Virus record (IMG/VR): IMGVR_UViG_3300034053_000021
Location: 203-64,202 of that record
Direction: 5' to 3' (one strand)
From: a virus
Lineage: Duplodnaviria > Caudoviricetes
DNA: 64,000 bases
Under the pieces are notes generated by a model, which was given only the letters and a program-made list of their open reading frames with translations, was not told where the DNA came from and did not search any database. This document shows, piece by piece, positions 1-64,000 of the stretch (positions within the stretch are counted from its first letter, which is position 1; the number at the start of each line of letters is the position of its first letter). A program made the translations under genes and the position numbers.

Positions 1-1
1 G

Positions 2-454
2 GCCGCTTTGCCTGAGCGCTTCCAGGTTGTCGCGTCCGTAGGCCACCAAGGCAATGGGTGCGCCGCTATTGAAATCTGCCCGCCGTCCGTCCACGTAGTG
101 GAAGTGCGGGCGCCCTTTGAGGAACAGCACACCATCTGCCGAGCCCCAGATCGTTTCGTAAAACATCGCGGTTTCGGTCCGCGCCGGAATCAAGGCAATT
201 CCGTTGCCGTGGTCGCGCATACGCCGCAGCCACTTCACGGCCTCGCGTCCGAATGGCGGGTTGCACCACACACGGCCAAACCACGGCAGCGCCAGCCCGT
301 CGTCCTGCGCCGTGTAGTGCTGTGCCGCTGTTTCCCAAGGCCGCACCGCTGGCGCGCACGGGTCAAGATCGAAGGCACCGAGCGCCCGCAGGATCTCTGG
401 CGGCGTCAGCCATTCGTCGTGTCCGCCGTTCTTCTGGTGCGCACTCAAACCCAT
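2..454 (-). CDS. Phage DNA N6-adenine methyltransferase (Dam-like), 3' end runs off the window
   Basis: Hand translation from ATG 454 (absent from the ORF track): MGLSAHQKNGGHDEWLTPPEILRALGAFDLDPCA...VWCNPPF...IALIPARTET. The EWxTP, FDLDPCA and NPPF motifs are typical of this family. Confidence 0.9.
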   Translation of the reverse strand, partial: MGLSAHQKNGGHDEWLTPPEILRALGAFDLDPCAPAVRPWETAAQHYTAQDDGLALPWFGRVWCNPPFGREAVKWLRRMRDHGNGIALIPARTETAMFYETIWGSADGVLFLKGRPHFHYVDGRRADFNSGAPIALVAYGRDNLEALRQSG

Positions 455-455
455 C

Positions 456-782
456 TCACTTGTCCCCCGTGTGGCACAACCCGTCAGTCGAGCCGACCTC
501 GCGCGATAATGCCGCGCTCGTCGGCTCACTTTTTGCGTTAGAGGGCATGTCCGCCAGTAGCCCAGCCAGCCGTTGCGCGGTACTCCAAACCTTTTTCGGC
601 GGGTTCGGCGTACCGGATCGAATCGCGTCCGGTGTCACCAGCACTGCACGCTGCGGTAGCGTCATCAACTCGCGCAGGAACGGAAGCAATTGGTGTTCTG
701 GCATCGTTCCGGTTTCAATGTGCGGCCCGTGGAACTTGCCACCCTTGCTGCGCCACAGGGCGCGAAGATCGTCGTCTGTCAT
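456..782 (-). CDS. Hypothetical cassette protein; C-terminus read through attC1
   Basis: 108-aa ORF; GAGGA SD just after the attC2 core. Confidence 0.75.
   Translation of the reverse strand: MTDDDLRALWRSKGGKFHGPHIETGTMPEHQLLPFLRELMTLPQRAVLVTPDAIRSGTPNPPKKVWSTAQRLAGLLADMPSNAKSEPTSAALSREVGSTDGLCHTGDK
474..543 (+). mobile_element. Integron attC site 1
   Basis: GCACAAC-5nt-AGT(C)GAGC CGAC...GTCG GCTCACT-6nt-GTTAGAG: R''/L''/L'/R' boxes with an extrahelical C in L''. Confidence 0.9.
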
Positions 783-797
783 GCTGTCCTCTCTGCC

Positions 798-863
798 CTC
801 TAACCCGTCAGTCGAGCGGACTCCGCGCCTGCGGCGCTCCGCTCGCTCACTTTTGAGTTAGTA
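798..863 (+). mobile_element. Integron attC site 2
   Basis: CTCTAAC-CCGTC-AGT(C)GAGC...GCTCACT-TTTGA-GTTAGTA. Confidence 0.9.
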
Positions 864-866
864 GGC

Positions 867-1085
867 TCAGTATTCACAGCACACCTCGAATTCGTGGCCG
901 CATTCCGGGCACTCCACCTCAAGGCTGTTTGCCAGTTTTGTGCCGCTCTCTATGGGTTGCAGACGTTCGTGGTTGACCCAGAAATCGTCGGCCCGCAGTA
1001 GATCAACAAACTCTCCACACTTCGGGCAATCGCAGTTCAAGGAAATGTCCCATGTCGCGCTAACTTCTGCTTTCTTCACCTTCAT
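867..1085 (-). CDS. Small double zinc-ribbon cassette protein
   Basis: CPKC and CPEC motifs; AAGGAG SD. Confidence 0.8.
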   Translation of the reverse strand: MKVKKAEVSATWDISLNCDCPKCGEFVDLLRADDFWVNHERLQPIESGTKLANSLEVECPECGHEFEVCCEY

Positions 1086-1102
1086 CTCCTTTTCGTCCAG
1101 CC

Positions 1103-1189
1103 TTCTAACCCGTTGCTCGTGCGGACCGAATATCGGCGGCGCTCGTTTCTCAATCCGCCTCGCGCGGTCCGCACAGCGCTGCGTTGGGC
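1103..1189 (+). mobile_element. Integron attC site 3
   Basis: TTCTAAC-CCGTT-GCT(C)GTGC GGACCG...CGGTCC GCACAGC-GCTGC-GTTGGGC. Confidence 0.9.
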
Positions 1190-1365
1190 GCCTTCTTCAC
1201 GCCGTCAAATGGTGGAACTTTCAGCCAAATATCTGCGGCATCTTCTGCCGCCATCTGGCCGCTGAACTCCATGCGGAAGCCTCCGTTCGTTTTGATCGAC
1301 ACAACCACAAGCGCCGTTCCTTGCTCGGGGTTCTCTCTCGGCATCGTTGCTCGCCATTTCTTCAT
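1150..1365 (-). CDS. Hypothetical cassette protein; stop codon inside attC3
   Basis: 71-aa ORF ending APNAALCGPREAD. Confidence 0.65.
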   Translation of the reverse strand: MKKWRATMPRENPEQGTALVVVSIKTNGGFRMEFSGQMAAEDAADIWLKVPPFDGVKKAPNAALCGPREAD

Positions 1366-1414
1366 CGCAGTCCTCTCAAAGCGGCATTGCCGCGTAAATT
1401 TTGCAAGTTGCAGC

Positions 1415-1484
1415 GCCCAACTAGGCGTGCAAGCGGGGCGCTGCGCGATAGGGCCGCGCAGCGCCCCTTCACTCGGCGTTGGGG
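1415..1484 (+). mobile_element. Integron attC site 4
   Basis: GCCCAAC-TAGGC-GTG(C)AAG..GGGCGCTGCGCG/CGCGCAGCGCCC..CTTCAC-TCGGC-GTTGGGG. Confidence 0.88.
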
Positions 1485-1488
1485 GTCT

Positions 1489-1740
1489 TCATTGCCGGCA
1501 TCCGATCTGCTTGCCTGCGCTGTCAATTCGTGGCGTCAGCCCTCCGCTCACCGCTTCGAGGTACTGGCAGCCGGTGAGCGCGTCGGTTCGCACCGCTACG
1601 CCGCTTCGCTTCCCCCATTCTCCGGGGTCACTGTCGTCTCGGCTGATCGGCAGCTTTCCTATCAGCACGACCGAGAAATAGAGCACGACGGCCCACTTTG
1701 CCAGCCACTTGGTGTAGTTCTTCAGTTCCTCAGCAGCCAT
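1489..1740 (-). CDS. Membrane-anchored cassette protein (DUF6440-like)
   Basis: Start at MAAEELK; N-terminal TM segment, then TDALTGCQYL..SGGLTPRIDSAGK. Confidence 0.7.
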   Translation of the reverse strand: MAAEELKNYTKWLAKWAVVLYFSVVLIGKLPISRDDSDPGEWGKRSGVAVRTDALTGCQYLEAVSGGLTPRIDSAGKQIGCRQ

Positions 1741-2227
1741 CGCGTTTCCCTTCAAAAGTCGGTGCTGGCTGGACGGCGACCCCCAACCCGTCGTTGCAGG
1801 CGCGACCTCCTTCGGCGGCGGCCTGAACTCGGGCGTTGGGGGCCTTACGCAGCGCCAAGTCCAGCCGCGCCAGTGCATTCCATGCCGCATGTGCCGCGTG
1901 GTGCAGTCCGGTGTCCGGGTCGCATTCCTCGCCAGTCGCCTCTCGCATCAGGTGCCGCAGCATCGCGTCCGTGTAGCGGCGTTCTCCGTCCGGCACTTCC
2001 ATCCAGCCGTTGTCGGTGTACTTGTTTGCGCCGTAGGTGCCCACAGCGCCAACCTCTTGCAGCGCCCGTGCAAACCCACATAACACCAACCCGAGCCGGT
2101 TCTTTCCGGCATCCAGCTTTGCCCCGGCCTCGTTCGGCTTCTTGCCGTTCGGGTCGGCCTCCAGTACCCCGAATGTCTCGGCTCTGTGCTGGTCGTCGGC
2201 GGTCATATGCATTTGGTTCTCCATCAT
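1730..2227 (-). CDS. dATP/dGTP diphosphohydrolase-like protein (DUF5664)
   Basis: GAKLDAGKNR..L...ALQEVGAVGTYGANKY..NGW...YTDAMLRH...DPDTGLHHAAHAAWNAL; the tail reads through attC5. Confidence 0.88.
   Translation of the reverse strand: MMENQMHMTADDQHRAETFGVLEADPNGKKPNEAGAKLDAGKNRLGLVLCGFARALQEVGAVGTYGANKYTDNGWMEVPDGERRYTDAMLRHLMREATGEECDPDTGLHHAAHAAWNALARLDLALRKAPNARVQAAAEGGRACNDGLGVAVQPAPTFEGKRDGC
1781..1841 (+). mobile_element. Integron attC site 5 (last of the array)
   Basis: CCCCAAC-CCGTC-GTT(G)CAGGC...GCCTGAAC-TCGGGC-GTTGGGG. Confidence 0.88.
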
Positions 2228-2230
2228 TCA

Positions 2231-2683
2231 TCAGTCCTCAAAAGTCTGCGCTGGCGATACGGCGCCGACTTTTGCGAGAACATCTCGCGCAATCTGGTTG
2301 CCAATGCTGTTTCCGTAGTGCGGTTCATTGCCAAGCCTCGCCAGCTTTTCGAGTGCCGCAGCAAGTTCGTCGCGCTGCTGCTTCATAGCGAAAAGCTCTT
2401 CCTGAGTTTCTACCAGAGCTGCACCGTTGATGTCCGCCGTCTGCTCGGATGCGGCGAGTTTATATTCAGCATCGCTCAAATCTTTTACAACGGAATCACG
2501 CATCTCCTTTGTTGCTTCCAGTTCAGCGCGCATGTGAGTAACGGCAGCCTCTAGGTGGATGATGTACTCTTGCTTATTCTTAAGTTCAGCGCGTAGTGAT
2601 TCGATTTCATGATGCAAAGGCTTTGTTGCCTCGTCGATTTCTCGCTGCCGCATCTGCCTAGTCAGATCTTGTGTTTCAATCAT
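2231..2683 (-). CDS. Hypothetical coiled-coil protein
   Basis: 150-aa heptad-rich ORF with GGAG SD. Confidence 0.75.
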   Translation of the reverse strand: MIETQDLTRQMRQREIDEATKPLHHEIESLRAELKNKQEYIIHLEAAVTHMRAELEATKEMRDSVVKDLSDAEYKLAASEQTADINGAALVETQEELFAMKQQRDELAAALEKLARLGNEPHYGNSIGNQIARDVLAKVGAVSPAQTFED

Positions 2684-3088: not shown

Positions 3089-3240
3089 CGCTGTATCTCC
3101 AGCAATTGCAACTCCGCATCCCACTGGTCCCACTCGCGTTTGTACTGCCGCACGACACCCGGGTTCATCCCGGTGCTGTTGGCGATGACGTAGGTGAAGT
3201 GGGCGAACCATGCGCAGAACCGGGTGAAGTGGTAGTTCAT
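3085..3240 (-). CDS. Small hypothetical protein (51 aa)
   Basis: MNYHFTRFCAWF...; ATGA overlaps at both ends. Confidence 0.6.
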   Translation of the reverse strand: MNYHFTRFCAWFAHFTYVIANSTGMNPGVVRQYKREWDQWDAELQLLEIQR

Positions 3241-3377
3241 TCCTCGCCCTCCCGTGAGTTTCTAGTTCCAGACCCTTTACATTTCCAACATACCGCGCCG
3301 TCGTACTGTCCTTCGCCTGATCCGCTGCATTCCGGGCACAGATGATCCTCTTGTTCCACCCACTTGTCAATAGTCAT
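3237..3377 (-). CDS. DnaJ-type zinc-finger miniprotein (46 aa)
   Basis: CPECSGSGEG...CWKCKGSG; ATGA-coupled. Confidence 0.7.
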   Translation of the reverse strand: MTIDKWVEQEDHLCPECSGSGEGQYDGAVCWKCKGSGTRNSREGEE

Positions 3378-4943: not shown

Positions 4944-5127
4944 GTGAATGGATCAAGCGAATATAACCTTCTGCGTCGGCGAACGTGGTGAACTCGTCCG
5001 TATCTTTGTTGTGACACGTGTCACAAAATGAGACTGTGTAGTAGTTGCGGCGGTTGTCGTGGTCAACATGGAACGATACGAGGGCGTAGTACCTCCAACC
5101 CCCGAACGTATCCGCCTCAAACCGCAT
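4933..5127 (-). CDS. Small hypothetical protein
   Basis: Start MRFEAD. Confidence 0.55.
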   Translation of the reverse strand: MRFEADTFGGWRYYALVSFHVDHDNRRNYYTVSFCDTCHNKDTDEFTTFADAEGYIRLIHSLEE

Positions 5128-5137
5128 CCCCTGCCGT

Positions 5138-5341
5138 CTAAGTCTGCCCACGATGTTCCAGCGCAAATATCAGCGCTGCCTGCGCGGCTTCGTAGGTATC
5201 GAACTCTTGTGTTTCGCCATGAAGTGGCTCGACACGATACGGCGGTGCCCCATTGGTATCGATGTACATAAACGGTTTGGGCAAGGCGCCGTCGACAACG
5301 ACAGACACCAGCCCTTCGTGTTCTTGGAATTCATAGCTCAT
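5138..5341 (-). CDS. Small hypothetical protein
   Basis: Start MSYEFQ. Confidence 0.6.
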   Translation of the reverse strand: MSYEFQEHEGLVSVVVDGALPKPFMYIDTNGAPPYRVEPLHGETQEFDTYEAAQAALIFALEHRGQT

Positions 5342-5343
5342 AC

Positions 5344-6150
5344 TCACCCCACAAGAATAAGTTCGTTGGCCGAATAGTGATCGGCACACTTCAACTTAGC
5401 CTGGTCACGGTAATGCTCGCGCTCAAGATCGAAATCCACGATACACCGGCAGAGCTGCCACATGCGGGTAACTTCATCGATATCTTTGTTCATAAGTATG
5501 GCATCCTCCACCATTTTGACCTCATCGCGCAAGAACACATCCCACATTGCGGACATACTCGGGTACGCCCTCGACTCGACGACCATCACCGACAGCCGCA
5601 GCTTGGCCTCGGCCCACAGATTCTTCCACCGTGCCTCGAACGCCTTGAACCGCTTGGGGTTGTCGAAGCTGTACTTGATCTTGTGCGAGGTGTATCTACC
5701 CTCGGGCGCGTAATGGTACGGCTTACCCTCAGGCGAATCGTATCCGATGGACCCCGACTTGAGTACGACCTTGTGTTCAACGTCCACCCACAACACAGGA
5801 TTGTCCTCGATACGGCTGACAGGTATCTTACGCCCGGTATGTGGACACTGCAACTTACTTACCAAGTCCTTGGCCGGACGAATCAGTACCCCATACCGCT
5901 CCTCGTTACGCTCTCGCCACGCGGGGTCACGGTCGCCGACATTACACACTTGCAGCTTACCGTCAGCCGCTACGCACACCTGCCCCGCGTCATCGACGTG
6001 CATCTCGAACAGTACTACCGCGCTGTCGGCGGAACCACGCGCGTTGCCTGATATAACCTCAAGTTGTCTGGACACATCGTTTCCGTAGCTGTTCTTGTAC
6101 TGCTGCGTCCAGTACGCACTGGTCATGAACGCCGGGTCTTTGAGTTTCAT
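5344..6150 (-). CDS. Hypothetical protein
   Basis: Start MKLKDP, ATGA-coupled to the upstream gene. Confidence 0.75.
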   Translation of the reverse strand: MKLKDPAFMTSAYWTQQYKNSYGNDVSRQLEVISGNARGSADSAVVLFEMHVDDAGQVCVAADGKLQVCNVGDRDPAWRERNEERYGVLIRPAKDLVSKLQCPHTGRKIPVSRIEDNPVLWVDVEHKVVLKSGSIGYDSPEGKPYHYAPEGRYTSHKIKYSFDNPKRFKAFEARWKNLWAEAKLRLSVMVVESRAYPSMSAMWDVFLRDEVKMVEDAILMNKDIDEVTRMWQLCRCIVDFDLEREHYRDQAKLKCADHYSANELILVG

Positions 6151-41697: not shown

Positions 41698-44600
41698 ATG
41701 CCGTCTATCCAAGATGTTCGTAAGCAGTACCCCCAAGATACCGCCGGACTGACGGATTATGGTATTGCCGAGAAATTCGCTTCTGCCAACTCGGTGCCTG
41801 TTTGGAAGGCTGCGGAAGAGCTTGGTGTTGAGATCCCTCGCGTCGAGACAGGGCTGTTCGACAGCCTGCAGCGCGGACTGGGTATCGGTCTGACCGGGGT
41901 TGGGTCGATCGCACGAGATGTACCAATATCCGCAATCCAAGATGCCGCGGGCTGGGTCGAACGCCAAGGGCGTGGGGTCATCGAGCGCAACCCAGCCCAG
42001 TACAACACCACGGAAGACATCATGGCGTCGCCGATCTCGGCGTTTGCCGAGAAGGCTGCTGAAGGCGTTGGTCAGTTCCTCCCCGCGCTCGCCGCGACGG
42101 CGGTGACCAAGAATCCCTACACGCTTGGCGCGATCATGGCGGCGAACTCCGCTGCAGGCAACGTAGGCGAAACCCGGTCGCGGCAGCGCGAGTTGGGGCA
42201 AGACTCGTCGGAAGATATCTTGAGAGCGTGGGCGTACGGTGTACCCCAAGTGGCCCTCGATGTGGCGCTGGGTCCGGAGTCGCTGCTGCTCAAAGGTCTC
42301 GCCGGAGGTGCCGGGCGCGGGCTGACCGAGGCAGCTGCACGGGAAGTTGCCGAGCGGGGCGTACTGGCGACGATGGGTCGCGGGGCGCTCTACGGTGCGC
42401 AAGAAGCTCCGCAAGAAGTCGCGCAGTCGGTGTTGGGGCGGATGGCGACGAAGGAAGCCTTGACCGGGGCAGACGCCACGGAAGAATATGCGATGAGCGC
42501 CTTTGGCGGGCTTGCCGGAGGCATGACGATGGGTGCAGGTATTGCGCCTGTGCAACGCGCTGGAGCATCCAAGTTCGTCGACCAGATCGATGCTGCACGA
42601 CAGACGCTTACGACCGGAGTACCTCAGACTTACGAAGAGGCCCAGCAGTGGCTGGCACAGCGGGAGCAGGCAACTGACTTCCTCCGGAATGTCACGGAAA
42701 ACGACTTCGGGCTTCACCAAGCGGAAGCGTTTGCTGCACAGCAGGTAGGGCAACAGCGCACTATCCTCGACGAAGCCGCCAGCCAACGACAGAAGGAAGT
42801 CGACGCACGCATCGCCGATCAGCGGGAGACGCAAGAAATCGAGGCCATGTACGAGGCCGACACGCAGCGGCAAGAGCAGTTGGCGATGATGCCAAAGGCC
42901 CTTAGTGAGTTGGCGAAGCAGCGCGAAGGCACTATCCCATACACCCCGGCATCGCTGGCAGATATTCCTGAGCCGAATTTGTCTCTCGGTGTGTCTAAGC
43001 TGCGCTCGCGGCTTCCTGTAACTCCCGAAACCGCGGAACTGCCGGCGATCGAATTCGCGTCTGTCACGCCTCCGGCGCCAGCTGAGGTTGCGTCTACCCA
43101 GATGTCGTTGCCGGGGATGCCATATGGCGGGGTACTAGAAGCTCCGACCCCTGTGTTTGCCGAAGCGGATCGATTTCGTGCGGCGTTGGCTCAGCTACAG
43201 CTGTCCGGCATGCCTCAACCAGAGGTACAAGCGGTTACACGGGACTTGCAGAAAGTGTCGGGATTCCAACCGGAAATCGGGTTTGGAACGCAGCCGTCGT
43301 TATCACAGTTGGAGCTACTGACCAAGCCAGCGAAACCCACGACCGTGGCCAAGCCGATGCCAGAAGTTGCCGCTGCCAGCCGCAAGCCGTCGCGAGCGGC
43401 AGCCGCCAAGATCGCTGTAAGCGAGGCTCTGGCCCGCCAGAAGATCACCCCCGAGCAGGCACAGGATTTCATCAACGAGATCGACGCCTCCGACGGCAAG
43501 AACGCCCCTGCGGTGTTGGAGACCCTCAATGGCCTATCACGACCCCCTGCCGCCGCTGCTGAGCAACGCACTGAAGGCCAAAATCCTGACGCTGGAGCAA
43601 GCGTGGGAACTGCAAGCGTTGGAGGAGTGCAGCCTGCAACTGATGGACAACCTGGAACCGCCGGAGGAGTTGTACCTAGCGATCAACAACCTAACCCTGT
43701 GGCTGCTGCGGCTGCCACGCCAGTAAAGGAGAACCAAGATGGCCTGCAAAAACCACAAGGGCAAGCGCCCGCCCAAAAAGTAAAGGAGCCTCGTCGTGAT
43801 CGCAAGACCAAAAATCCCCAAGCAACTCAAGCCCCTCAACGCCCCCAAGGCGCCGAAACCGCTGAAGCCCCTGCGGCCGTCCAAGCCGGCGAAGAAGCCG
43901 AAGTATTGACCGGAGGAACTCCCGATGCCGTTCAAGAGCAAAGCGCAAGTGAAGGCGTGTCACGCCGCCAAGAACCCGAAGTGGGACTGCAAGAAGTGGG
44001 CGAAGGAAACGCCGTCGATGAAGTCCCTGCCGAAGAAGGTCAAGCCGAAGAAAAAGTAAGGATGGCGTACCCGGATAACACCGGGTACCCGCCGGAAGCC
44101 GCAGCGTATCGTAATTCGGTAGTCGACGCCATGAACGGGGATATTTCCCGTGCAGAACTGAAGGTCAAGGCCGTCGAATCTGGGCTACCCGAAGGTCAGC
44201 TGCGGGCGTTCACAAGCAGGTTCGATGGTGGATTCACCAATACGGAACACAAGGAGATTGAAGATGCCCGTAAAGCCGCAGAAACCCCGGTGCCCGCACT
44301 GCCGCAAGAAGCACTCACCAAGCGGGAAGTGCCCGATGAAGTAGCCGACCTTGATACTTCGGAACAGGATCTGAAGGGCGAACTTACAGCGTTGCTCGAC
44401 CCGAAGTACGGGGTCAGGACGACGGCAAAAGCAACACGTACCCGTCTGCAGACATTAGTCGACGACTTTGACCAACCAGACAACAGATCAACGCCGGAAG
44501 ACCGTGTGGCGTACCAAGGCTACGTGCGCAGGGAGATGGACAAACTTGTAGGTCGGGAGGGTATCGACTACTCCAAGACCGTCCCCAACACCGCGGAAGA

Positions 44601-47600
44601 GCGCACAACGCCGCAGAAGATCCGCCAAGCACTGCGGAGCTGGTTCATCACGCCCGAGCAGGCGTCGTCACGGTTGGTGGTTTCCGCGACTCCCGACGAA
44701 TTACCGACAGGTGTCAAAGCTAAGGCGGAAGCCGCCGAGGGATTCACCGGATGGGACCAAACCCAAGCCTTCGTCCTCGACGGCAAGGGCTACATGATCG
44801 CGGACAACATCGCCGCTGGTAACGAGCTGGCGGTATTCATGCACGAGATCGGCGCACACATCGGTCTGGACGGGCAAGAGTCCGCGATCATGGGGCGGGT
44901 GAACTTGTGGAGCACCGCCAAGGAAGGCACCACGGAGCGGCAGGTCTACGACGCCATGCAGAGCCGCATGGAGGCCGCAGGCGAGACTTCCCAGACCGAG
45001 CAGGTGGCATACGCTGTCGAGGAGGCGGTGAAGGCCGGCGTGACCCCCAAGGCTGTCAAGACAGGCATGAAGCTGTCGGACGTGAAGACCGCCCAAGACC
45101 TCGTGAATTGGCTCGCCCAGTACTTCAAAGCCGCAGTCGACAAGGTGTTCAAGACCAACACCCGCGGGTTCAATGCCCAGCAGTTGGTCGACTTGACGTA
45201 CGGCGCAGCGCGGGAGGCGATGGATACTCAGGAAGTCGGCGCTGGCAAGACGGCGATGTCGAAGACAGAACCGCAATTCTCCAAGTCCGCAGAGGTCATG
45301 CCTCAGACGTACAGGAAAATCCTCGGCGACGGCGGGGTGCAGGTATATGACCAATTCCGCGAGCTGCTCTCCAAGGTGGCCAACGAAGGCGGGTCGCTGT
45401 CGAACATGGTCCGCCGGATGGAGAAGACTTTCCCGGTCATGAAGCAGTGGCACGACGTAATGATTGACATTGCCGAGGCGCGGACGGTGCGCGAGCAGGT
45501 GGCAGATGACATTCTGAGCCGGGCGTCGCTGATGGGCAACGACTCATACAAGCGGGTAGCCGAATTCGTCTACAACTCGACATGGGACCAGAAGTGGGCG
45601 TACGACCCGGAATTCACCAAGACGGTGGTCGAGGGCGACAAAGAGACGTTGGAGAAGGTTGAGGTCAAGGTCGATCCGACGTTCGCCAAGGAGTTCAAGG
45701 CGCTCTCCGCCGAGGAGCAGCAGCTGGTCAAGGACATCTTCGCTCACGGGCACAACAACCGTGAGGCGCTGCGCGGCATCATGCGCAAGCTGAAGCTCGA
45801 CGACAGGCTCTTGCGGGTTACCCAGCTTGACGGCCCCTACGCGCCGCTGCGTCGCTTCGGCCAGTACGTCGCCGAGGTCAAATCCCAGCGCGTGATGGAT
45901 TTGGAGCGACAGCTGGAGGCAGCGAAGGACACCGACGACGAGACCCAGAGCAAGGGGTTCAGCGCGATCCGCAAGGAACTGACCGAACTGAAGCGTCAGG
46001 AGCAGCACTATTCGCTGACCTTCCACGACACGATCGGCGTCGCCAAGAAGAAAGAGCGCGACATGCTCGCCACCGGGCGGTATTCGACCGACCCCAAGGC
46101 GCACTACGCAGGCGAGCGGCTGGATCAGGCGTTCAGTCAGGACGAGATGCCGCAGGATGTCTTGCAGCGGGTGATGGGCGAGATCAAGGCCGCATCCCTG
46201 ACCGACGACAAGGTGGCGCCGATCCGCGCCCAGCTGGAGAGCATGGTTACCGACATGTACCAGCGCACGACCGAAGACCACTTGGCCCGGCAGGCGATGA
46301 AGCCTCGGAAGTACCGGTTCGGCGCGGACACGGACATGATCCGCTCATTTGGTATGCAGGCCAAGGCGGATGCAATCTTTCTCGCGCACATGGAACACGG
46401 TGGCCGGCTGAACGGGCTGACCAGCGAGATGTACCAAAAGGCGCGCAAGTCCAAAGATCCGAAGATCGTCAGTGCAACCAATACTGCACTGACGCACCAG
46501 CGGCTGATGGCTGAGTACAAGGAAACCCCGGTTCAGGACACCCTCAAGGGGGCGATGTCGATCTGGCAGCTCGGGCTGAACCCGGCCTACCACGTGCAGA
46601 ATGCGACCCAGACGGTGATGAAGTCCGCCCCGATGATTGCCTCTGAGTTTGCTGGCGACCCGGGGTCGAGCTGGACGGCAGACTACGTCCAGACGATGAA
46701 GCTCATCACCGAGGGGTACAAGGACTGGGCCAAGTACGTCAAGGACGGCAAGATCCAGTTCGAGCGTATTCCCGCAGGGCTCCGCGAAGCCATGCAGCAC
46801 GCGGCGCGGCGTAACCTCATTGACGTGGGTCTGATCGACGACTTCGACCAGCTCAACCGGTGGGACTCTGGGTTCGAGAGTGTTAACGCCCTGACCCTGC
46901 AGGCGCGCAAGTTTGCGCACCGGGTACGGCAGGTGGCTCGGCACGTCGAGCGGATGAACCGGGTCACGGCGGCGTCGGCCGCGTACAAGATGGCGATCGC
47001 CAAGGGGCGCACGCAGGAGCAGGCGGAATACTTCGCCATCCGCGTTCTGGAGGACACCCAGGGCGACAACTCGCGGCTGGATGCCCCGCTCATCATCAAG
47101 CGGCTGCCTAAGGTGCTGACGATCTACAAGCGCTACCAGCTGATGGTTGCGGCGCTCTACACCAAGGCGTTCCACGATGCGTTCCGGGGCGCGGATGCGG
47201 CGACCCGGGCTGTCGGCCGGCGGATGTTGGGGCTGCAGTTGATGCACGCATTCGCGATGGGTGGGGTGCTCGGGCTACCGCTGGTGAATATCGCGCAGCT
47301 GGTTCTGCCACACTTGTTTGGCGATGACGACGCGCCGAAGGATGAGGACTGGCTGGAGCGGCAGTTCCGCGAGATGGGCGTGCCCACAGCACTACTGAAG
47401 GGCGGACTCAACGCCGCGATCGGGTTGGACATGGGTGCCAAACTGGGTGACCAGAACGTGTTCTCGATCCTGCCCTTCACCGACATCGACTTCACCAGCA
47501 AGAAGGGCGTCATGGACATGGCGGTTGGCATGATGGGACCGGTGGGCACCGAGGCACTGCGTATGGCCGACGGTCTGGAGCTCATCAAGCAGGGCAACAC

Positions 47601-48069
47601 CGCCAAGGGTGTTGAAAAACTGGTGCCTCGCGGCGTGACCAACGGGATGCAGGCATGGCGCCTCGCCAACGAGGGGATCACGGTGCGTAATGGCGACGTT
47701 CTGGTGCAGCCGGAAGACCTCAGCACATACCAGCTCTTCCTGAAGGGCCTCGGCATGCCGCCTGCACAGCTCAACGACTACCAGTGGATACAATCGCAGC
47801 AGATCGAGGTGTCCAAGTTCTACCGCGAGAAAGAGCAGACGCTGCGCAACCGATACGCCCGCGCTGCCAAGGCGGGGGACACTGCCGAAATGCAGGATCT
47901 TGCCGATACGTGGGAAAATCTGCAGGCAGCCAAGGGCAACTTCGCGCCGTACTTCAACAACTCCCCCAAGGAACTGAAGGCCAAGCCGCTTCGCATCCTG
48001 CGCGAAGCCCCCGAGAAACAGCAGAAGCGCGAGGCCGATGCCCAAGCGCGGATACCCGAGGAAATATGA
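41698..48069 (+). CDS. Large polyvalent internal virion protein (zincin-like HExxxH + PLxRFG-type domain)
   Basis: 2123 aa; VFMHEIGAHIG; YAPLRRFGQY. Confidence 0.8.
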   Translation: MPSIQDVRKQYPQDTAGLTDYGIAEKFASANSVPVWKAAEELGVEIPRVETGLFDSLQRGLGIGLTGVGSIARDVPISAIQDAAGWVERQGRGVIERNPAQYNTTEDIMASPISAFAEKAAEGVGQFLPALAATAVTKNPYTLGAIMAANSAAGNVGETRSRQRELGQDSSEDILRAWAYGVPQVALDVALGPESLLLKGLAGGAGRGLTEAAAREVAERGVLATMGRGALYGAQEAPQEVAQSVLGRMATKEALTGADATEEYAMSAFGGLAGGMTMGAGIAPVQRAGASKFVDQIDAARQTLTTGVPQTYEEAQQWLAQREQATDFLRNVTENDFGLHQAEAFAAQQVGQQRTILDEAASQRQKEVDARIADQRETQEIEAMYEADTQRQEQLAMMPKALSELAKQREGTIPYTPASLADIPEPNLSLGVSKLRSRLPVTPETAELPAIEFASVTPPAPAEVASTQMSLPGMPYGGVLEAPTPVFAEADRFRAALAQLQLSGMPQPEVQAVTRDLQKVSGFQPEIGFGTQPSLSQLELLTKPAKPTTVAKPMPEVAAASRKPSRAAAAKIAVSEALARQKITPEQAQDFINEIDASDGKNAPAVLETLNGLSRPPAAAAEQRTEGQNPDAGASVGTASVGGVQPATDGQPGTAGGVVPSDQQPNPVAAAAATPVKENQDGLQKPQGQAPAQKVKEPRRDRKTKNPQATQAPQRPQGAETAEAPAAVQAGEEAEVLTGGTPDAVQEQSASEGVSRRQEPEVGLQEVGEGNAVDEVPAEEGQAEEKVRMAYPDNTGYPPEAAAYRNSVVDAMNGDISRAELKVKAVESGLPEGQLRAFTSRFDGGFTNTEHKEIEDARKAAETPVPALPQEALTKREVPDEVADLDTSEQDLKGELTALLDPKYGVRTTAKATRTRLQTLVDDFDQPDNRSTPEDRVAYQGYVRREMDKLVGREGIDYSKTVPNTAEERTTPQKIRQALRSWFITPEQASSRLVVSATPDELPTGVKAKAEAAEGFTGWDQTQAFVLDGKGYMIADNIAAGNELAVFMHEIGAHIGLDGQESAIMGRVNLWSTAKEGTTERQVYDAMQSRMEAAGETSQTEQVAYAVEEAVKAGVTPKAVKTGMKLSDVKTAQDLVNWLAQYFKAAVDKVFKTNTRGFNAQQLVDLTYGAAREAMDTQEVGAGKTAMSKTEPQFSKSAEVMPQTYRKILGDGGVQVYDQFRELLSKVANEGGSLSNMVRRMEKTFPVMKQWHDVMIDIAEARTVREQVADDILSRASLMGNDSYKRVAEFVYNSTWDQKWAYDPEFTKTVVEGDKETLEKVEVKVDPTFAKEFKALSAEEQQLVKDIFAHGHNNREALRGIMRKLKLDDRLLRVTQLDGPYAPLRRFGQYVAEVKSQRVMDLERQLEAAKDTDDETQSKGFSAIRKELTELKRQEQHYSLTFHDTIGVAKKKERDMLATGRYSTDPKAHYAGERLDQAFSQDEMPQDVLQRVMGEIKAASLTDDKVAPIRAQLESMVTDMYQRTTEDHLARQAMKPRKYRFGADTDMIRSFGMQAKADAIFLAHMEHGGRLNGLTSEMYQKARKSKDPKIVSATNTALTHQRLMAEYKETPVQDTLKGAMSIWQLGLNPAYHVQNATQTVMKSAPMIASEFAGDPGSSWTADYVQTMKLITEGYKDWAKYVKDGKIQFERIPAGLREAMQHAARRNLIDVGLIDDFDQLNRWDSGFESVNALTLQARKFAHRVRQVARHVERMNRVTAASAAYKMAIAKGRTQEQAEYFAIRVLEDTQGDNSRLDAPLIIKRLPKVLTIYKRYQLMVAALYTKAFHDAFRGADAATRAVGRRMLGLQLMHAFAMGGVLGLPLVNIAQLVLPHLFGDDDAPKDEDWLERQFREMGVPTALLKGGLNAAIGLDMGAKLGDQNVFSILPFTDIDFTSKKGVMDMAVGMMGPVGTEALRMADGLELIKQGNTAKGVEKLVPRGVTNGMQAWRLANEGITVRNGDVLVQPEDLSTYQLFLKGLGMPPAQLNDYQWIQSQQIEVSKFYREKEQTLRNRYARAAKAGDTAEMQDLADTWENLQAAKGNFAPYFNNSPKELKAKPLRILREAPEKQQKREADAQARIPEEI

Positions 48070-60060: not shown

Positions 60061-60257
60061 TTGGTTCTTTCCTTTCGTTTGGTGTAGTCATCGGAACAGT
60101 CTTTGTCGCAAAACCTGCGACCTTTGGGCACACGCGCCAAGCAGTTGTGGCACTTGCCGTTCGGCTCCACGTCGTACTTGACTTGTGATGCGTGCAGTAT
60201 AGCACGCTTCAGCAGTTCTTCCGCCTGATCGTTTGCTCTGTCGATTTCGTCAGCCAC
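60057..60257 (-). CDS. TraR/DksA-like C4 zinc-finger protein
   Basis: MADEIDRAND; CHNC....RFCD.DC. Confidence 0.7.
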   Translation of the reverse strand: MADEIDRANDQAEELLKRAILHASQVKYDVEPNGKCHNCLARVPKGRRFCDKDCSDDYTKRKERTK

Positions 60258-60798
60258 CTTTAGCCCCCTCCACAGATTGTGACTTGTTGTAATTCCCGAT
60301 AGTCGCGTAGCTGCGATGCTTAGGAACCTCTGTGACACGGTAGAACAACGCCTGCCCTGCTCTCATACCGGGACGGATACGAAGCGTGTGGAACCTGTTG
60401 AGATTGACGAACTCCAGAGTCAGCGATGACCCATGCCATCCCGGATCTGCGTGTCCGGCATGTAGGTGTTCCAAGTGATTACGTGCTAAGGAACTGTTAA
60501 GGTAATACTCACCGACGATGTTGTTCGGAAGGTTGAATATCTCTACTGTATGCGCGAGGATTCCTTCTCCTGGAGCGAGATCGTAGTATGAGCCAGTAAT
60601 GTCAATACTTGTGCGAGCTACAGACTGTCGAGGTTTTACCGATAGGTCGATAGTTTCAGTGTAAGCACTGTTTTCGGCAAGTATCTCATTACCTAGATGA
60701 AGATCAATCGACGCAGCATTGATAGCCTCCGGTTTGACGTTGGTAATTACACCCTGTTCAGCCAATTCGCACAACTCTGTGTAGCTTAGTAAGCTCAT
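60250..60798 (-). CDS. dcd: dCTP deaminase
   Basis: INAASIDLHLG; SSLAR; DPGW.G..LTLE..N; G.R.GQ. Confidence 0.9.
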   Translation of the reverse strand: MSLLSYTELCELAEQGVITNVKPEAINAASIDLHLGNEILAENSAYTETIDLSVKPRQSVARTSIDITGSYYDLAPGEGILAHTVEIFNLPNNIVGEYYLNSSLARNHLEHLHAGHADPGWHGSSLTLEFVNLNRFHTLRIRPGMRAGQALFYRVTEVPKHRSYATIGNYNKSQSVEGAKGG

Positions 60799-62208: not shown

Positions 62209-62216
62209 GTTATGCG
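62209..62216 (+). mobile_element. Inferred primary insertion point (G|TTATGCG) of the first cassette
   Basis: Complementary to the attC6 R'' (CGCATAAC) over 8 bp; no attC hairpin on its left. Confidence 0.55.
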
Positions 62217-62569
62217 ACAGTGGGTGTCGGATAATTTAAGTTATGCATCGTCATCAGTGTGCGCAGATCGCAGAGCGCATCAAAACACTGCTCCCTGTCG
62301 TAGCCGTACTTGTGAAACTGCTCCAGCGTATCAATCGCCAGATTCACCGCGCGTTCGCAAAAAGTCGGCGCTGGCGAGACGGCGGGTTCTTCGTCGTAAA
62401 TCGGTTTCCCGCAGCTATCGCACTGGTTCCAGTCCGTTTCCTCAATTCCGTGGCCGGTGCTGCAAGTGCAAAACGGCTCGTCGCCCTCTTCGTCTTCCTG
62501 CATCATCAGCCACTCTTCGTCATAGTCTTCCGGTGGCGGCTGCGCCCCTATCGCGCTTGGCCCCATCAT
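62210..62569 (-). CDS. Cassette gene with zinc finger
   Basis: CTC, CDSCGKPI; TAA stop lies inside the core site. Confidence 0.7.
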   Translation of the reverse strand: MMGPSAIGAQPPPEDYDEEWLMMQEDEEGDEPFCTCSTGHGIEETDWNQCDSCGKPIYDEEPAVSPAPTFCERAVNLAIDTLEQFHKYGYDREQCFDALCDLRTLMTMHNLNYPTPTVA

Positions 62570-62862
62570 TTCAGCCCCGCCTCTGCTCTGAGTTGCCGCA
62601 CTGCCTCATTGTGTGCGTCTGCGATGTATTCAGCGTTCGGCATTCGCATAATCTCAGTCAGGTCTTTCGCGTACTTGCGGATAAAGTTGCGCAAGTCAAT
62701 TACATCTTCGGCGCAGCAATCGTGTTCCTCTGTCTTTATCTTCAGTGCCGTCTCAAGCCGGTGAATCTCTGCCGCACACTCTCCGTGCGGATCGCCATCT
62801 GGCTGTTCATCAAACATTGCCTTCTCCTCTCGCGCCTCGCGCATTGCCTGTCCGAAATTCAT
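62566..62862 (-). CDS. Cassette gene, coiled coil
   Basis: GDPHGECAAEI.RL; GGAGG SD just after the attC6 core. Confidence 0.75.
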   Translation of the reverse strand: MNFGQAMREAREEKAMFDEQPDGDPHGECAAEIHRLETALKIKTEEHDCCAEDVIDLRNFIRKYAKDLTEIMRMPNAEYIADAHNEAVRQLRAEAGLK

Positions 62863-62878
62863 CTCTTCCTCCAAATCC

Positions 62879-62946
62879 GCATAACACGTCGCTCAACACG
62901 GACGCAGGCAATAAAGCCGCCTGCGCCGGTTAGCTAGGCGTTATGC
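62879..62946 (+). mobile_element. Integron attC site 6
   Basis: GCATAAC-ACGTC-GCT(C)AAC(A)CGG(A)CGCAGGC...GCCTGCG CCG GTTAGC-TAGGC-GTTATGC; three extrahelical bases. Confidence 0.92.
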
Positions 62947-63251
62947 CTCGCGTACAGTGGAGTCCATGCCCCGCTGTTTTTTCGCACATACTCGATCTGT
63001 TCATCCATGATCGGGCCTTCGTAGCATCCGTCGCTGCAAAAACGAATCCATGCAACAGGCTTTGCCGTCTCGTCAGCGCCGACTTTTCTGCACTTGTCGC
63101 GCATCAGTTCAATCATCCGCTCGCGCTCCTGCGCTCTATCACTGTGGTGCTCAGCCGTTGCCCAGCAATCACGAAGATCCCTCAGCGCTACCGTGTCGTC
63201 AGTCGGGCAGTACTTCGGGTTTCGTGCCCTCATCCAGTTGTCGAAGGTCAT
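62934..63251 (-). CDS. Cassette gene (KPVAW...WTPLY module); stop codon inside attC6
   Basis: Start MTFDNW; ATGA-coupled. Confidence 0.75.
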   Translation of the reverse strand: MTFDNWMRARNPKYCPTDDTVALRDLRDCWATAEHHSDRAQERERMIELMRDKCRKVGADETAKPVAWIRFCSDGCYEGPIMDEQIEYVRKNSGAWTPLYARHNA

Positions 63252-63973
63252 GGCATCACCACCTTGCTTTCCGCTGGCGGTTTCGGCAACGGCATCCAAG
63301 TTGCAGCGGCCATCTTCTGGTTGCTGTGCCAGAAAATCCCGCCAATCCAAGCGCCGTGAACAGTCTTGCCGCCACGGACAAATAAAACCTCTTGTGCTTC
63401 TTGCGGAAGTTCATCAACCACGTCGCGCCAGCGCGGGGCATCTTCAAGTCGCTCAACCAGTCCAGCCACAAACCCGCCCTGTTCAAGTTCTTCCGTCGTC
63501 ACTCCGGTGCAAGCATTCACGCAGGCCGCAATCCTCCGGGCATCGGTTTTCCGTGGATTCACCATATCGAGCAATTTGCCAACACCTTCGTCGTCCCTCA
63601 GTAAAGAGGTGGAAAGCAGGTTATTTCGGTACATGTATTCCGCAGCCTTTACCGCTACGTCATTGGCCACCGATCCCTTGTTTATTTGCCTGCACAGGCG
63701 GTTAACCAATGCGGCAAGGTTCTCAATCGTGTCGATCAAACCAAGCACCGTCGCAGGGTTCGCCGCTGCGTAGAACTTCGCCAACTTGAGCGAATCATCT
63801 GCCGCGTAATACTGGTCGCAATCAACGGTTGTCACACAATACTTCTCACCGTCCTCGCTAATGTGGCCAACCGCTGCCGCAAGTTCGTCCTCCGCAGGGT
63901 CAAGCCACGCGGTATCGCAGTTGCTCCAGCCTTTCACGTCTTCGGCCAGTGCTTTCAGTTTTCCCAGTTCCAT
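63248..63973 (-). CDS. Cassette gene, Ead/Ea22-like N-terminus + DUF551-like C-terminus
   Basis: AKFYAAANPATVL.LI; NARRIAACVNAC-like motif; W....ELP...WMPLP.PP. Confidence 0.8.
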   Translation of the reverse strand: MELGKLKALAEDVKGWSNCDTAWLDPAEDELAAAVGHISEDGEKYCVTTVDCDQYYAADDSLKLAKFYAAANPATVLGLIDTIENLAALVNRLCRQINKGSVANDVAVKAAEYMYRNNLLSTSLLRDDEGVGKLLDMVNPRKTDARRIAACVNACTGVTTEELEQGGFVAGLVERLEDAPRWRDVVDELPQEAQEVLFVRGGKTVHGAWIGGIFWHSNQKMAAATWMPLPKPPAESKVVMP

Positions 63974-63995
63974 TCCTCGTCCTTTCATCGTTAAG

Positions 63996-64000
63996 GCATA
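63996..64000 (+). mobile_element. Probable start of attC site 7, truncated by the window edge
   Basis: AAGGCATA at the edge is complementary to GTTATGCCT at 62940 if the next two bases are AC. Confidence 0.55.

Follow-up and report, generated by a model that had tools for sequence, protein, structure and literature searches.

An integrase-less array of integron-type attC sites and inverted gene cassettes in a complete tailed-phage genome

The cassette array and its genes

An array of integron-type attC sites separating small gene cassettes is located in a 64,000-nt stretch of viral DNA, here termed the window, which comprises bases 203-64202 of the 64,202-nt IMG/VR virus record IMGVR_UViG_3300034053_000021. 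The record ends in a 125-nt direct terminal repeat, giving a genome that is a 64,077-nt circle, of which 77 nt fall outside the window. A tailed-phage gene set is encoded in this genome, including a large terminase (TerL), portal, tail fibre, virion protein, DNA polymerase, helicase and primase-helicase. The array consists of seven attC sites (S1 to S7) and six cassettes, or seven when a tentative first cassette is counted, and is situated on an arm of the genome with negative GC skew where the genes are directed leftward. The sites span approximately 3.0 kb of the circle (approximately 3.7 kb with the tentative first cassette), with distances of 305-366 nt between the site starts in the run from S1 to S5, close to the unit length of 295-357 bp proposed when the sequence was read without database searches (hereafter, the sequence-only reading). 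Site coordinates refer to the + strand and extend from the R'' box to the R' box, both boxes included.

The left end of the array, and with it the start of the first cassette, is tentatively suggested by a single 7-mer match, a lone GTTATGC box (62232..62238, +) which is the exact reverse complement of the R'' box of S6 (GCATAAC). Two small open reading frames (ORFs) on the - strand make up this tentative cassette (62210-62569, 119 aa; 62566-62874, 102 aa), the second of which has no Pfam or PHROG match. Site S6 (62879-62946, +) is followed by a two-gene cassette on the - strand (62934-63251, 105 aa; 63248-63988, 246 aa), the larger product of which is Ead/Ea22-like (PF13935, weak; phrog_4029, e-value: 2.4e-8). 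The first five bases of S7 lie at 63996-64000 (+) of the window, while the remaining 58 nt are found in the 77 nt beyond it, which complete the site (L001:121-183). Next in the circle is a gene encoding a Dam-like DNA methyltransferase (2..454, full gene L001:135-656, -; PF05869, Bitscore: 37.5; phrog_111, e-value: 2e-41), the stop codon of which falls within S7. Site S1 (474-543, +) and a 108-aa gene without a family match (456..782, -), the ORF of which continues through S1, are followed by S2 (798-863, +) and a 72-aa Zn-ribbon gene (867..1085, -; phrog_4173, e-value: 8e-10). The next site, S3 (1103-1189, +), has a longer loop and is adjoined by a 71-aa gene which ends within it and has no family match (1150..1365, -), while S4 (1415-1484, +) is adjoined by an 83-aa DUF6440-like gene (1489..1740, -; phrog_14094, e-value: 1e-12; PF20037, 24 bits with a cut-off of 26.5).

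The last site, S5 (1781-1841, +), is adjoined by a predicted dATP/dGTP diphosphohydrolase gene (1730..2227, -; PF18909 at residues 33-128, e-value: 7.9e-26). The conserved part of its product (1845-2227, -) belongs to a family which we take to be associated with phages that modify their purines; it stops at the start of S5, and the ORF then reads through the site. In relatives this gene is itself a cassette, with flanking sites in the contigs L004-L010. As proposed in the sequence-only reading, the cargo is of phage type and includes a Dam-like methyltransferase, while the DUF6440 and Zn-ribbon assignments remain below the Pfam thresholds and the DUF551 domain it had named was not found at an e-value of 0.01 or less.

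Two features of the cassette genes may be noted here. The ORFs at 456-782, 1730-2227 and L001:135-656 (all -) run into or through the next attC site, such that their C-terminal tails are encoded by the site, and these tails differ between homologues located beside different sites. Furthermore, a 16-nt motif, GCCAGCNCNGACTTTT, occurs in four copies (1754-1769, -; 2240-2255, -; 62360-62375, -; 63072-63087, +), against 0.02 expected. Two of the copies lie just 5' of the start codons of the DUF6440-like and diphosphohydrolase genes, and a near-copy is found next to an S1-type site in a sludge metagenome contig. The motif may have a role as a promoter or leader element of the phage that travels with cassettes.

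Structure and detection of the attC sites

All seven sites share a common order on the + strand. A box of 7 nt with AAC at its 3' end is separated by a 5-nt spacer from three stem pairs and one extra base, after which come the remainder of the imperfect stem, its loop and an opposite arm lacking the extra base; a spacer of 5-6 nt then leads to a box that starts with GTT. The AAC and GTT ends are invariant (7/7 sites), in keeping with attC sites, in which the inverse core R'' is RYYYAAC and the core R' is GTTRRRY. The extra base after the third stem pair of the 5' arm is likewise present in every site, being a C in six of them and a G in S5, and three extra bases spaced 3 bp apart are found on the 5' arm of S4, S6 and S7 (C, A and A in S6). 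In attC sites, polarity is fixed by such extrahelical bases of the R''/L'' arm, a C marking the top strand and a G the bottom strand.

A covariance model built from S4, S6 and S7 (R1) scored 16.8 to 30.8 bits on the four sites not used to build it, with the top match elsewhere at 14.8 bits. A second model (R2), built from 37 sites of other phages only, recovered exactly the seven sites, all on the + strand, with scores of 35.7 to 81.5 bits and e-values of 7e-7 to 5e-19. The highest score was obtained for S7 (81.5 bits; e-value: 4.7e-19), followed by S6 (67.9 bits; 1.9e-15), S4 (59.7 bits; 3e-13), S1 (48.7 bits), S5 (39.3 bits; 8e-8), S2 (35.9 bits; 6.6e-7) and S3 (35.7 bits; 7.3e-7). Beyond these, R2 reached at most 15.5 bits anywhere in the 64 kb, the - strand included, and the seven are thus all the attC-type sites that this model finds in the 64,077-nt circle. 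The geometry and the model matches bear out the five sites which the sequence-only reading had placed at 474, 798, 1103, 1415 and 1781 and the sixth at 62879, with the AAC/GTT ends, 5-6 nt spacers and extrahelical base that it described, while the seventh, which it held to be probable at the right edge, is real and starts at 63996.

Stem pairing is conserved among the relatives. In an alignment of their 37 sites, 91.4% of the cells are paired, compared with 70.1% in shuffles, and compensatory changes are observed in 16/17 pairs of the L helix. When the 36 distinct sites are considered, 94% of cells are paired, with structure being kept rather than sequence. The outer R-box pairs are often unpaired in these sites, as would be expected if R' is derived from the next cassette. 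A reciprocal test was made on a class 1 integron of a Salmonella plasmid (intI1, dfrA1, aadA1), in which its two attC sites, attC_aadA1 (55 bits) and attC_dfrA1 (23 bits), were the only matches of R2. Both were matched with the correct ends and in the coding direction, the reverse strand scoring 8.3 bits. The model also recovers three published attC sites of Tetrasphaera phage TJE1. A search of the window against Rfam gave no matches, which is uninformative as Rfam is unlikely to include attC. The identification of the sites as attC sites is thus supported by their geometry, stem covariation and the reciprocal model test, together with the boundary rule and the identity to a site of a chromosomal integron described below.

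Absence of an integrase

The complete genome has no matches to models of the integron integrase IntI (TIGR02249) or of tyrosine recombinases (PF00589), which extends to the whole circle the statement of the sequence-only reading that no integrase is visible. Similarly, no matches were found in it to the Y1/HUH transposase (PF01797) or serine recombinase (PF00239) models. Hairpin elements of the repetitive extragenic palindrome (REP)/RAYT or IS200/IS605 type were considered and rejected, the Y1 transposase (PF01797) being absent from the genome. The locus is not a complete integron: neither TIGR02249 nor PF00589 is matched, a sigma-70-like promoter was not found in 1-2700, and attI was not searched for. 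Two or more neighbouring attC sites without a nearby intI constitute a cluster of attC sites lacking an integrase (CALIN), and the phage has seven such sites and no intI or any tyrosine recombinase gene in its complete genome. Because no integrase is encoded in the complete genome, a CALIN probably served by an IntI of the host is the best reading of the locus. We therefore regard the locus, with good confidence, as a genuine integrase-less integron-type cassette array occupying the early or accessory part of this complete genome of a tailed phage, and a host IntI would act on it in trans.

Cassette boundaries

In integrons, the bases that follow the G|TT crossover point are contributed by the next cassette and pair with the R'' box of that same cassette. 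This chain rule is observed at 6/6 junctions in the window, where the units are flanked by inverted boxes matching over 8-11 nt, while the two boxes of each individual site match each other no better than chance. Across all arrays analysed, full agreement at the four variable positions is found in 39 of the 52 adjacent pairs, compared with 9% of random pairs and 7/61 own-site pairs. Complementary boxes at the unit ends are the mark expected of a unit that would be able to close into a circle at G|TT.

The sequence-only reading had pointed to a comparison of relatives at G|TT, and breakpoints of this kind are found. Exactly two cassettes are shared by the viral contigs L004 and L005, at 99.9-100% identity, and on either side of this block the two contigs part at AA|C of the sense strand, the counterpart of the canonical G|TT on the other strand. 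Similarly, homology among the diphosphohydrolase genes of seven loci stops exactly at the AAC box. The linkage of attC bodies to genes was also considered at 77-92% protein identity and set aside as uninformative, since neither of the bodies flanking the diphosphohydrolase gene is conserved above background; it is likely that these non-coding bodies have diverged or been replaced.

Inverted polarity of the cassettes

The top strand of the attC sites, which is the strand recognized by R2, is the + strand in the window, and in the class 1, Azonexus and Pelomonas arrays it runs away from intI. All cargo genes of the phage array are located on the - strand, including those with family matches (methyltransferase, DUF6440-like, Zn ribbon and Ead/Ea22-like). 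In eight related viral contigs, 54/54 sites are on the strand opposite to the genes, and a further contig (L060) contributes five more sites with the same inverted layout. Furthermore, the longest ORF is on the bottom strand in 47 of the 52 units of all arrays. The canonical layout, with the ORF on the top strand and attC 3' of it, is thus not that of the phage cassettes, while bacterial arrays of the same attC family, namely those of Pelomonas and Gallionella and the second Azonexus cassette, are mostly canonical. This uniform inverted polarity separates the phage cassette pool from the canonical bacterial pool. A literature search yielded no description of inverted phage arrays, nor of a direct match between a phage and an integron cassette, and the inverted polarity, in this phage and in nine related viral contigs, is the new point of this analysis, one that had escaped the sequence-only reading.

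The polarity also bears on whether a fragment of a bacterial integron could have been joined into a phage contig during assembly. Such an artefact is conceivable in that the record derives from a metagenome and the same attC family occurs in bacterial chromosomes of similar habitats. The gene polarity is, however, opposite to that of the bacterial arrays, the cargo belongs to phage families and is entirely co-oriented with the flanking phage genes, the record closes on its 125-nt terminal repeat, and the same layout is present in nine other viral contigs from other samples, making an artefact highly improbable.

IntI recombines attC sites as folded hairpins of the bottom strand. In the phage, the genes would have this recombinogenic strand as their sense strand, and a cassette would consist of an attC body, a short leader and a gene in that order, attC preceding its gene instead of following it as in bacteria. 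During infection, cassettes would be inserted, excised and exchanged by a host IntI that is supplied in trans and acts on the bottom-strand hairpins, with other phages and the host integron as exchange partners. What the inversion may achieve can only be speculated upon. Replication co-directional with the genes would place the folding (sense) strand on the lagging-strand template and so favour folding, this being the orientation of high recombination; alternatively, the inversion might keep captured cassettes silent in the partner genome.

Links to chromosomal integrons and the likely host

An exact 20-mer of the 5' arm shared by S1 and S2 is found in 16 bacterial genome stretches, mostly of Betaproteobacteria. 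In contig08 of Pelomonas sp. V22, an IntI (470 bits, the cut-off of the model being 265 bits) is followed by an array with at least 14 sites of the S1/S2 family in 8 kb, and in the Azonexus sp. metagenome-assembled genome JAGOBB010000015.1 an IntI (504 bits) is followed by cassettes of the same attC family. The first Azonexus attC (L048:2847-2916) agrees with S1 at 67/70 positions, and the part from AAC to GTT is 100% identical.

The Azonexus cassette terminated by this S1-identical site is the attI-proximal one and the most recently acquired. The cassette harbors an 89-aa gene on the bottom strand, preceded by a good ribosome-binding site, and as such has the inverted layout of the phage type. 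Relatives of the 89-aa gene with 85-86% identity are cassettes in the viral contigs L056 and L057, where the flanking sites again occupy the strand opposite to the gene. Azonexus and L057 have co-inherited the attC body that precedes the gene, with a compensatory change in the stem, and the homology between the two ends at the downstream AAC box. Since the upstream body is co-inherited and the homology ends at this box, the mobile unit would comprise body, leader and gene, and the first Azonexus cassette reads as an inverted cassette cut at the normal place. The identity of S1 to a site of an IntI integron and the presence of a phage-type cassette in its newest position together point to a two-way trade of cassettes between phage and host. 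The host of the phage is probably a betaproteobacterium of the Rhodocyclales or Burkholderiales, living in freshwater or activated sludge.

Two further observations concern the Pelomonas array. A long subclass of attC sites (120-126 nt, with approximately 60 extra loop bases) is present in both phage (L007:4082-4202, 8387-8509 and 10515-10635; L008:2681-2800 and 3122-3242) and Pelomonas (L039:6685-6810) arrays. Three paralogous Pelomonas cassettes (L039:1587-1985, 5071-5469 and 5470-5868; 90-99.5% identical) carry S2-type attC sites among otherwise homogeneous Pelomonas-type sites and lack a convincing ORF. These were considered as shared cassettes and dropped, as their bottom-strand translations look non-coding and they have no phage relatives.

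Related phages, public metagenomes and the genomic backbone

Related phages contain the same type of array with other cassettes and up to 14 sites in 7.4 kb. At least three complete phage genomes, 36-64 kb in size, carry attC arrays without IntI. In one complete relative, the 43-kb phage G001 (record of L006), a gene for a Xer-like tyrosine recombinase of 223 aa (L030:1483-2154) is located approximately 2 kb upstream of the array, and a 375-aa Xer-like recombinase is encoded elsewhere, both of which score far below the IntI cut-off. These two proteins lend some weight to the alternative that the arrays constitute a phage-specific cassette system with a recombinase other than IntI, for instance a small Xer-like enzyme, lost from the present phage or borrowed from co-infecting phages. 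Against this, no tyrosine recombinase is encoded in the present genome or in the complete relatives G002 and G003, the sites match those of a true class 1 integron, and one of them is identical to the attI-proximal attC of an IntI integron. We consider this alternative unlikely and retain a host IntI as the enzyme that would serve the array.

No public sequencing run exceeded a 9% share of the sequence words of window 1-2400, and contigs from four runs contained only single modules of the array in other contexts. Joints in these runs with low likeness or short sides were excluded from the evidence. The S1 body recurs in four metagenomes from freshwater, wastewater and sludge with 97-100% identity, and the genes recur there with 86-97% identity.

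The best match of TerL in cultured phages is only 37% identical. No relative was found among cultured phages, the methyltransferase being the only array gene represented among the top matches listed, and the matches of TerL and the array genes to cultured phages gave no host assignment. A search with two backbone genes for syntenic relatives returned no close relative, with one partial match for the 150-aa gene at 2231-2683 and one match of 40% for the 182-aa gene at 60250-60798. Elsewhere in the genome, a 2,123-aa protein is encoded at 41698-48069 (+), the C-terminal third of which resembles DarB-like antirestriction proteins (phrog_10089, e-value: 2e-37).

Recurrence of attC bodies in unrelated contexts

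Contigs L009 and L041 contain the S7 body with identity at 49/49 positions, and a third contig contains it with one mismatch, the variable box bases and both flanks being unrelated. The S7-type sites are located at window 63996 to L001:183, L009:7223-7285, L007:6746-6808 and L041:3644-3706. The S1 body is likewise identical in the Azonexus integron, in unrelated surroundings.

Several points weigh against an IntI-driven array as set out above. In 10 of the 14 pairs of attC bodies compared between loci (at least 92% identical), both sides show unrelated DNA and different box bases, while the single crossover point of IntI cannot part a body from the gene on its R'' side. Re-association on both flanks would thus require gene conversion, recombination of the top strand or repeated genesis of cassettes. 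The sequences are metagenome assemblies, in which repeated attC bodies could mis-order cassettes, and gain or loss in an otherwise identical genome was seen only for the relatives L004 and L005. The host, moreover, is predicted from sequence links. The sequence-only reading had named excision junctions as a possible trace of activity, and no such joint was seen at the phage's own sites in the contigs from public runs.

The recurrence of identical bodies of 49-62 nt in unrelated contexts, unlike on both flanks, would also suit a reading in which the hairpins are structural or regulatory elements, such as terminators, RNA-processing signals or regions of linker homology, and their likeness to attC is convergent or fossil. 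Homologous recombination or gene conversion within the bodies would give unlike flanks, and the sites are situated within the transcribed strand of genes that share one orientation. A role as terminators is, however, contradicted by the lack of a T-run after the stems and by a terminator prediction that gave five terminator-like sites compared with 3.5 +/- 2.0 in shuffles, with no - strand match at an attC stem. Linker homology leaves unexplained the chain rule, the conserved extra bases with their fixed polarity and the exact AA|C breakpoints. Hairpins with a purely structural or regulatory role are as such improbable, and an IntI-type cassette array remains the preferred reading.

Relation to known integrons and significance

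The Vibrio cholerae repeats (VCRs) show, on their top strand, the same pattern of three extra bases spaced 3 bp apart as S4, S6 and S7, and VCR cassettes are mostly canonical in polarity. Like the phage sites, VCRs are near-identical bodies attached to unrelated genes, while host and sequence differ. The integrons of Pelomonas V22 and Azonexus resemble the phage array in attC family and chain rule, and their cassettes are 200-1100 nt in size. They differ from it in possessing intI and an attI-side junction and in carrying their ORFs mostly on the top strand, the first Azonexus cassette, with its phage-type inverted layout, being the exception among the bacterial ones. The class 1 sites of aadA1 and dfrA1 share with the phage sites the succession of R'' box, 5-nt spacer, 3 bp, extra C, stem, 5-6 nt spacer and R', whereas the resistance genes of that integron are on the top strand and are expressed from Pc beside intI1.

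Integrons are generally considered to be devices of bacteria, and the sedentary type is now regarded as a repository of genes for defence against phages. The sequence-only reading had described CALINs as a feature mainly of bacterial chromosomes and plasmids. This requires amendment, as phage CALINs as such are already known: 17 have been reported in phages, including virulent ones, with methyltransferases among their cargo, and IntI1 recombined 5/6 of the phage attC sites tested (Qi et al. 2023, PMC9892861). As in the present phage, attC sites part small genes in Tetrasphaera phage TJE1 and no intI is present, and methyltransferases occur among the cargo of phage CALINs. TJE1 has three sites with the genes on the attC top strand, in the canonical manner, whereas the phage described here has seven sites with the genes on the bottom strand and, unlike TJE1, a direct sequence link to a host integron.

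We tentatively suggest, as a possibility that we would rate somewhat below even, that phages of freshwater and sludge Betaproteobacteria keep a pool of inverted cassettes of their own, which is traded among unrelated phages and host integrons by means of the host IntI, that the inversion may be functional, and that attC bodies and gene units behave as two independent modules. In the array described here, the phage would use the recombination grammar of integrons for its own accessory genes, among them a methyltransferase and, in relatives, a nucleotide pyrophosphohydrolase. The identical attC bodies located beside unrelated genes offer a manageable set of data with which to address the still unsolved origin of cassettes, and the independent re-association of bodies and gene units, if true, would bear on how cassettes are made.

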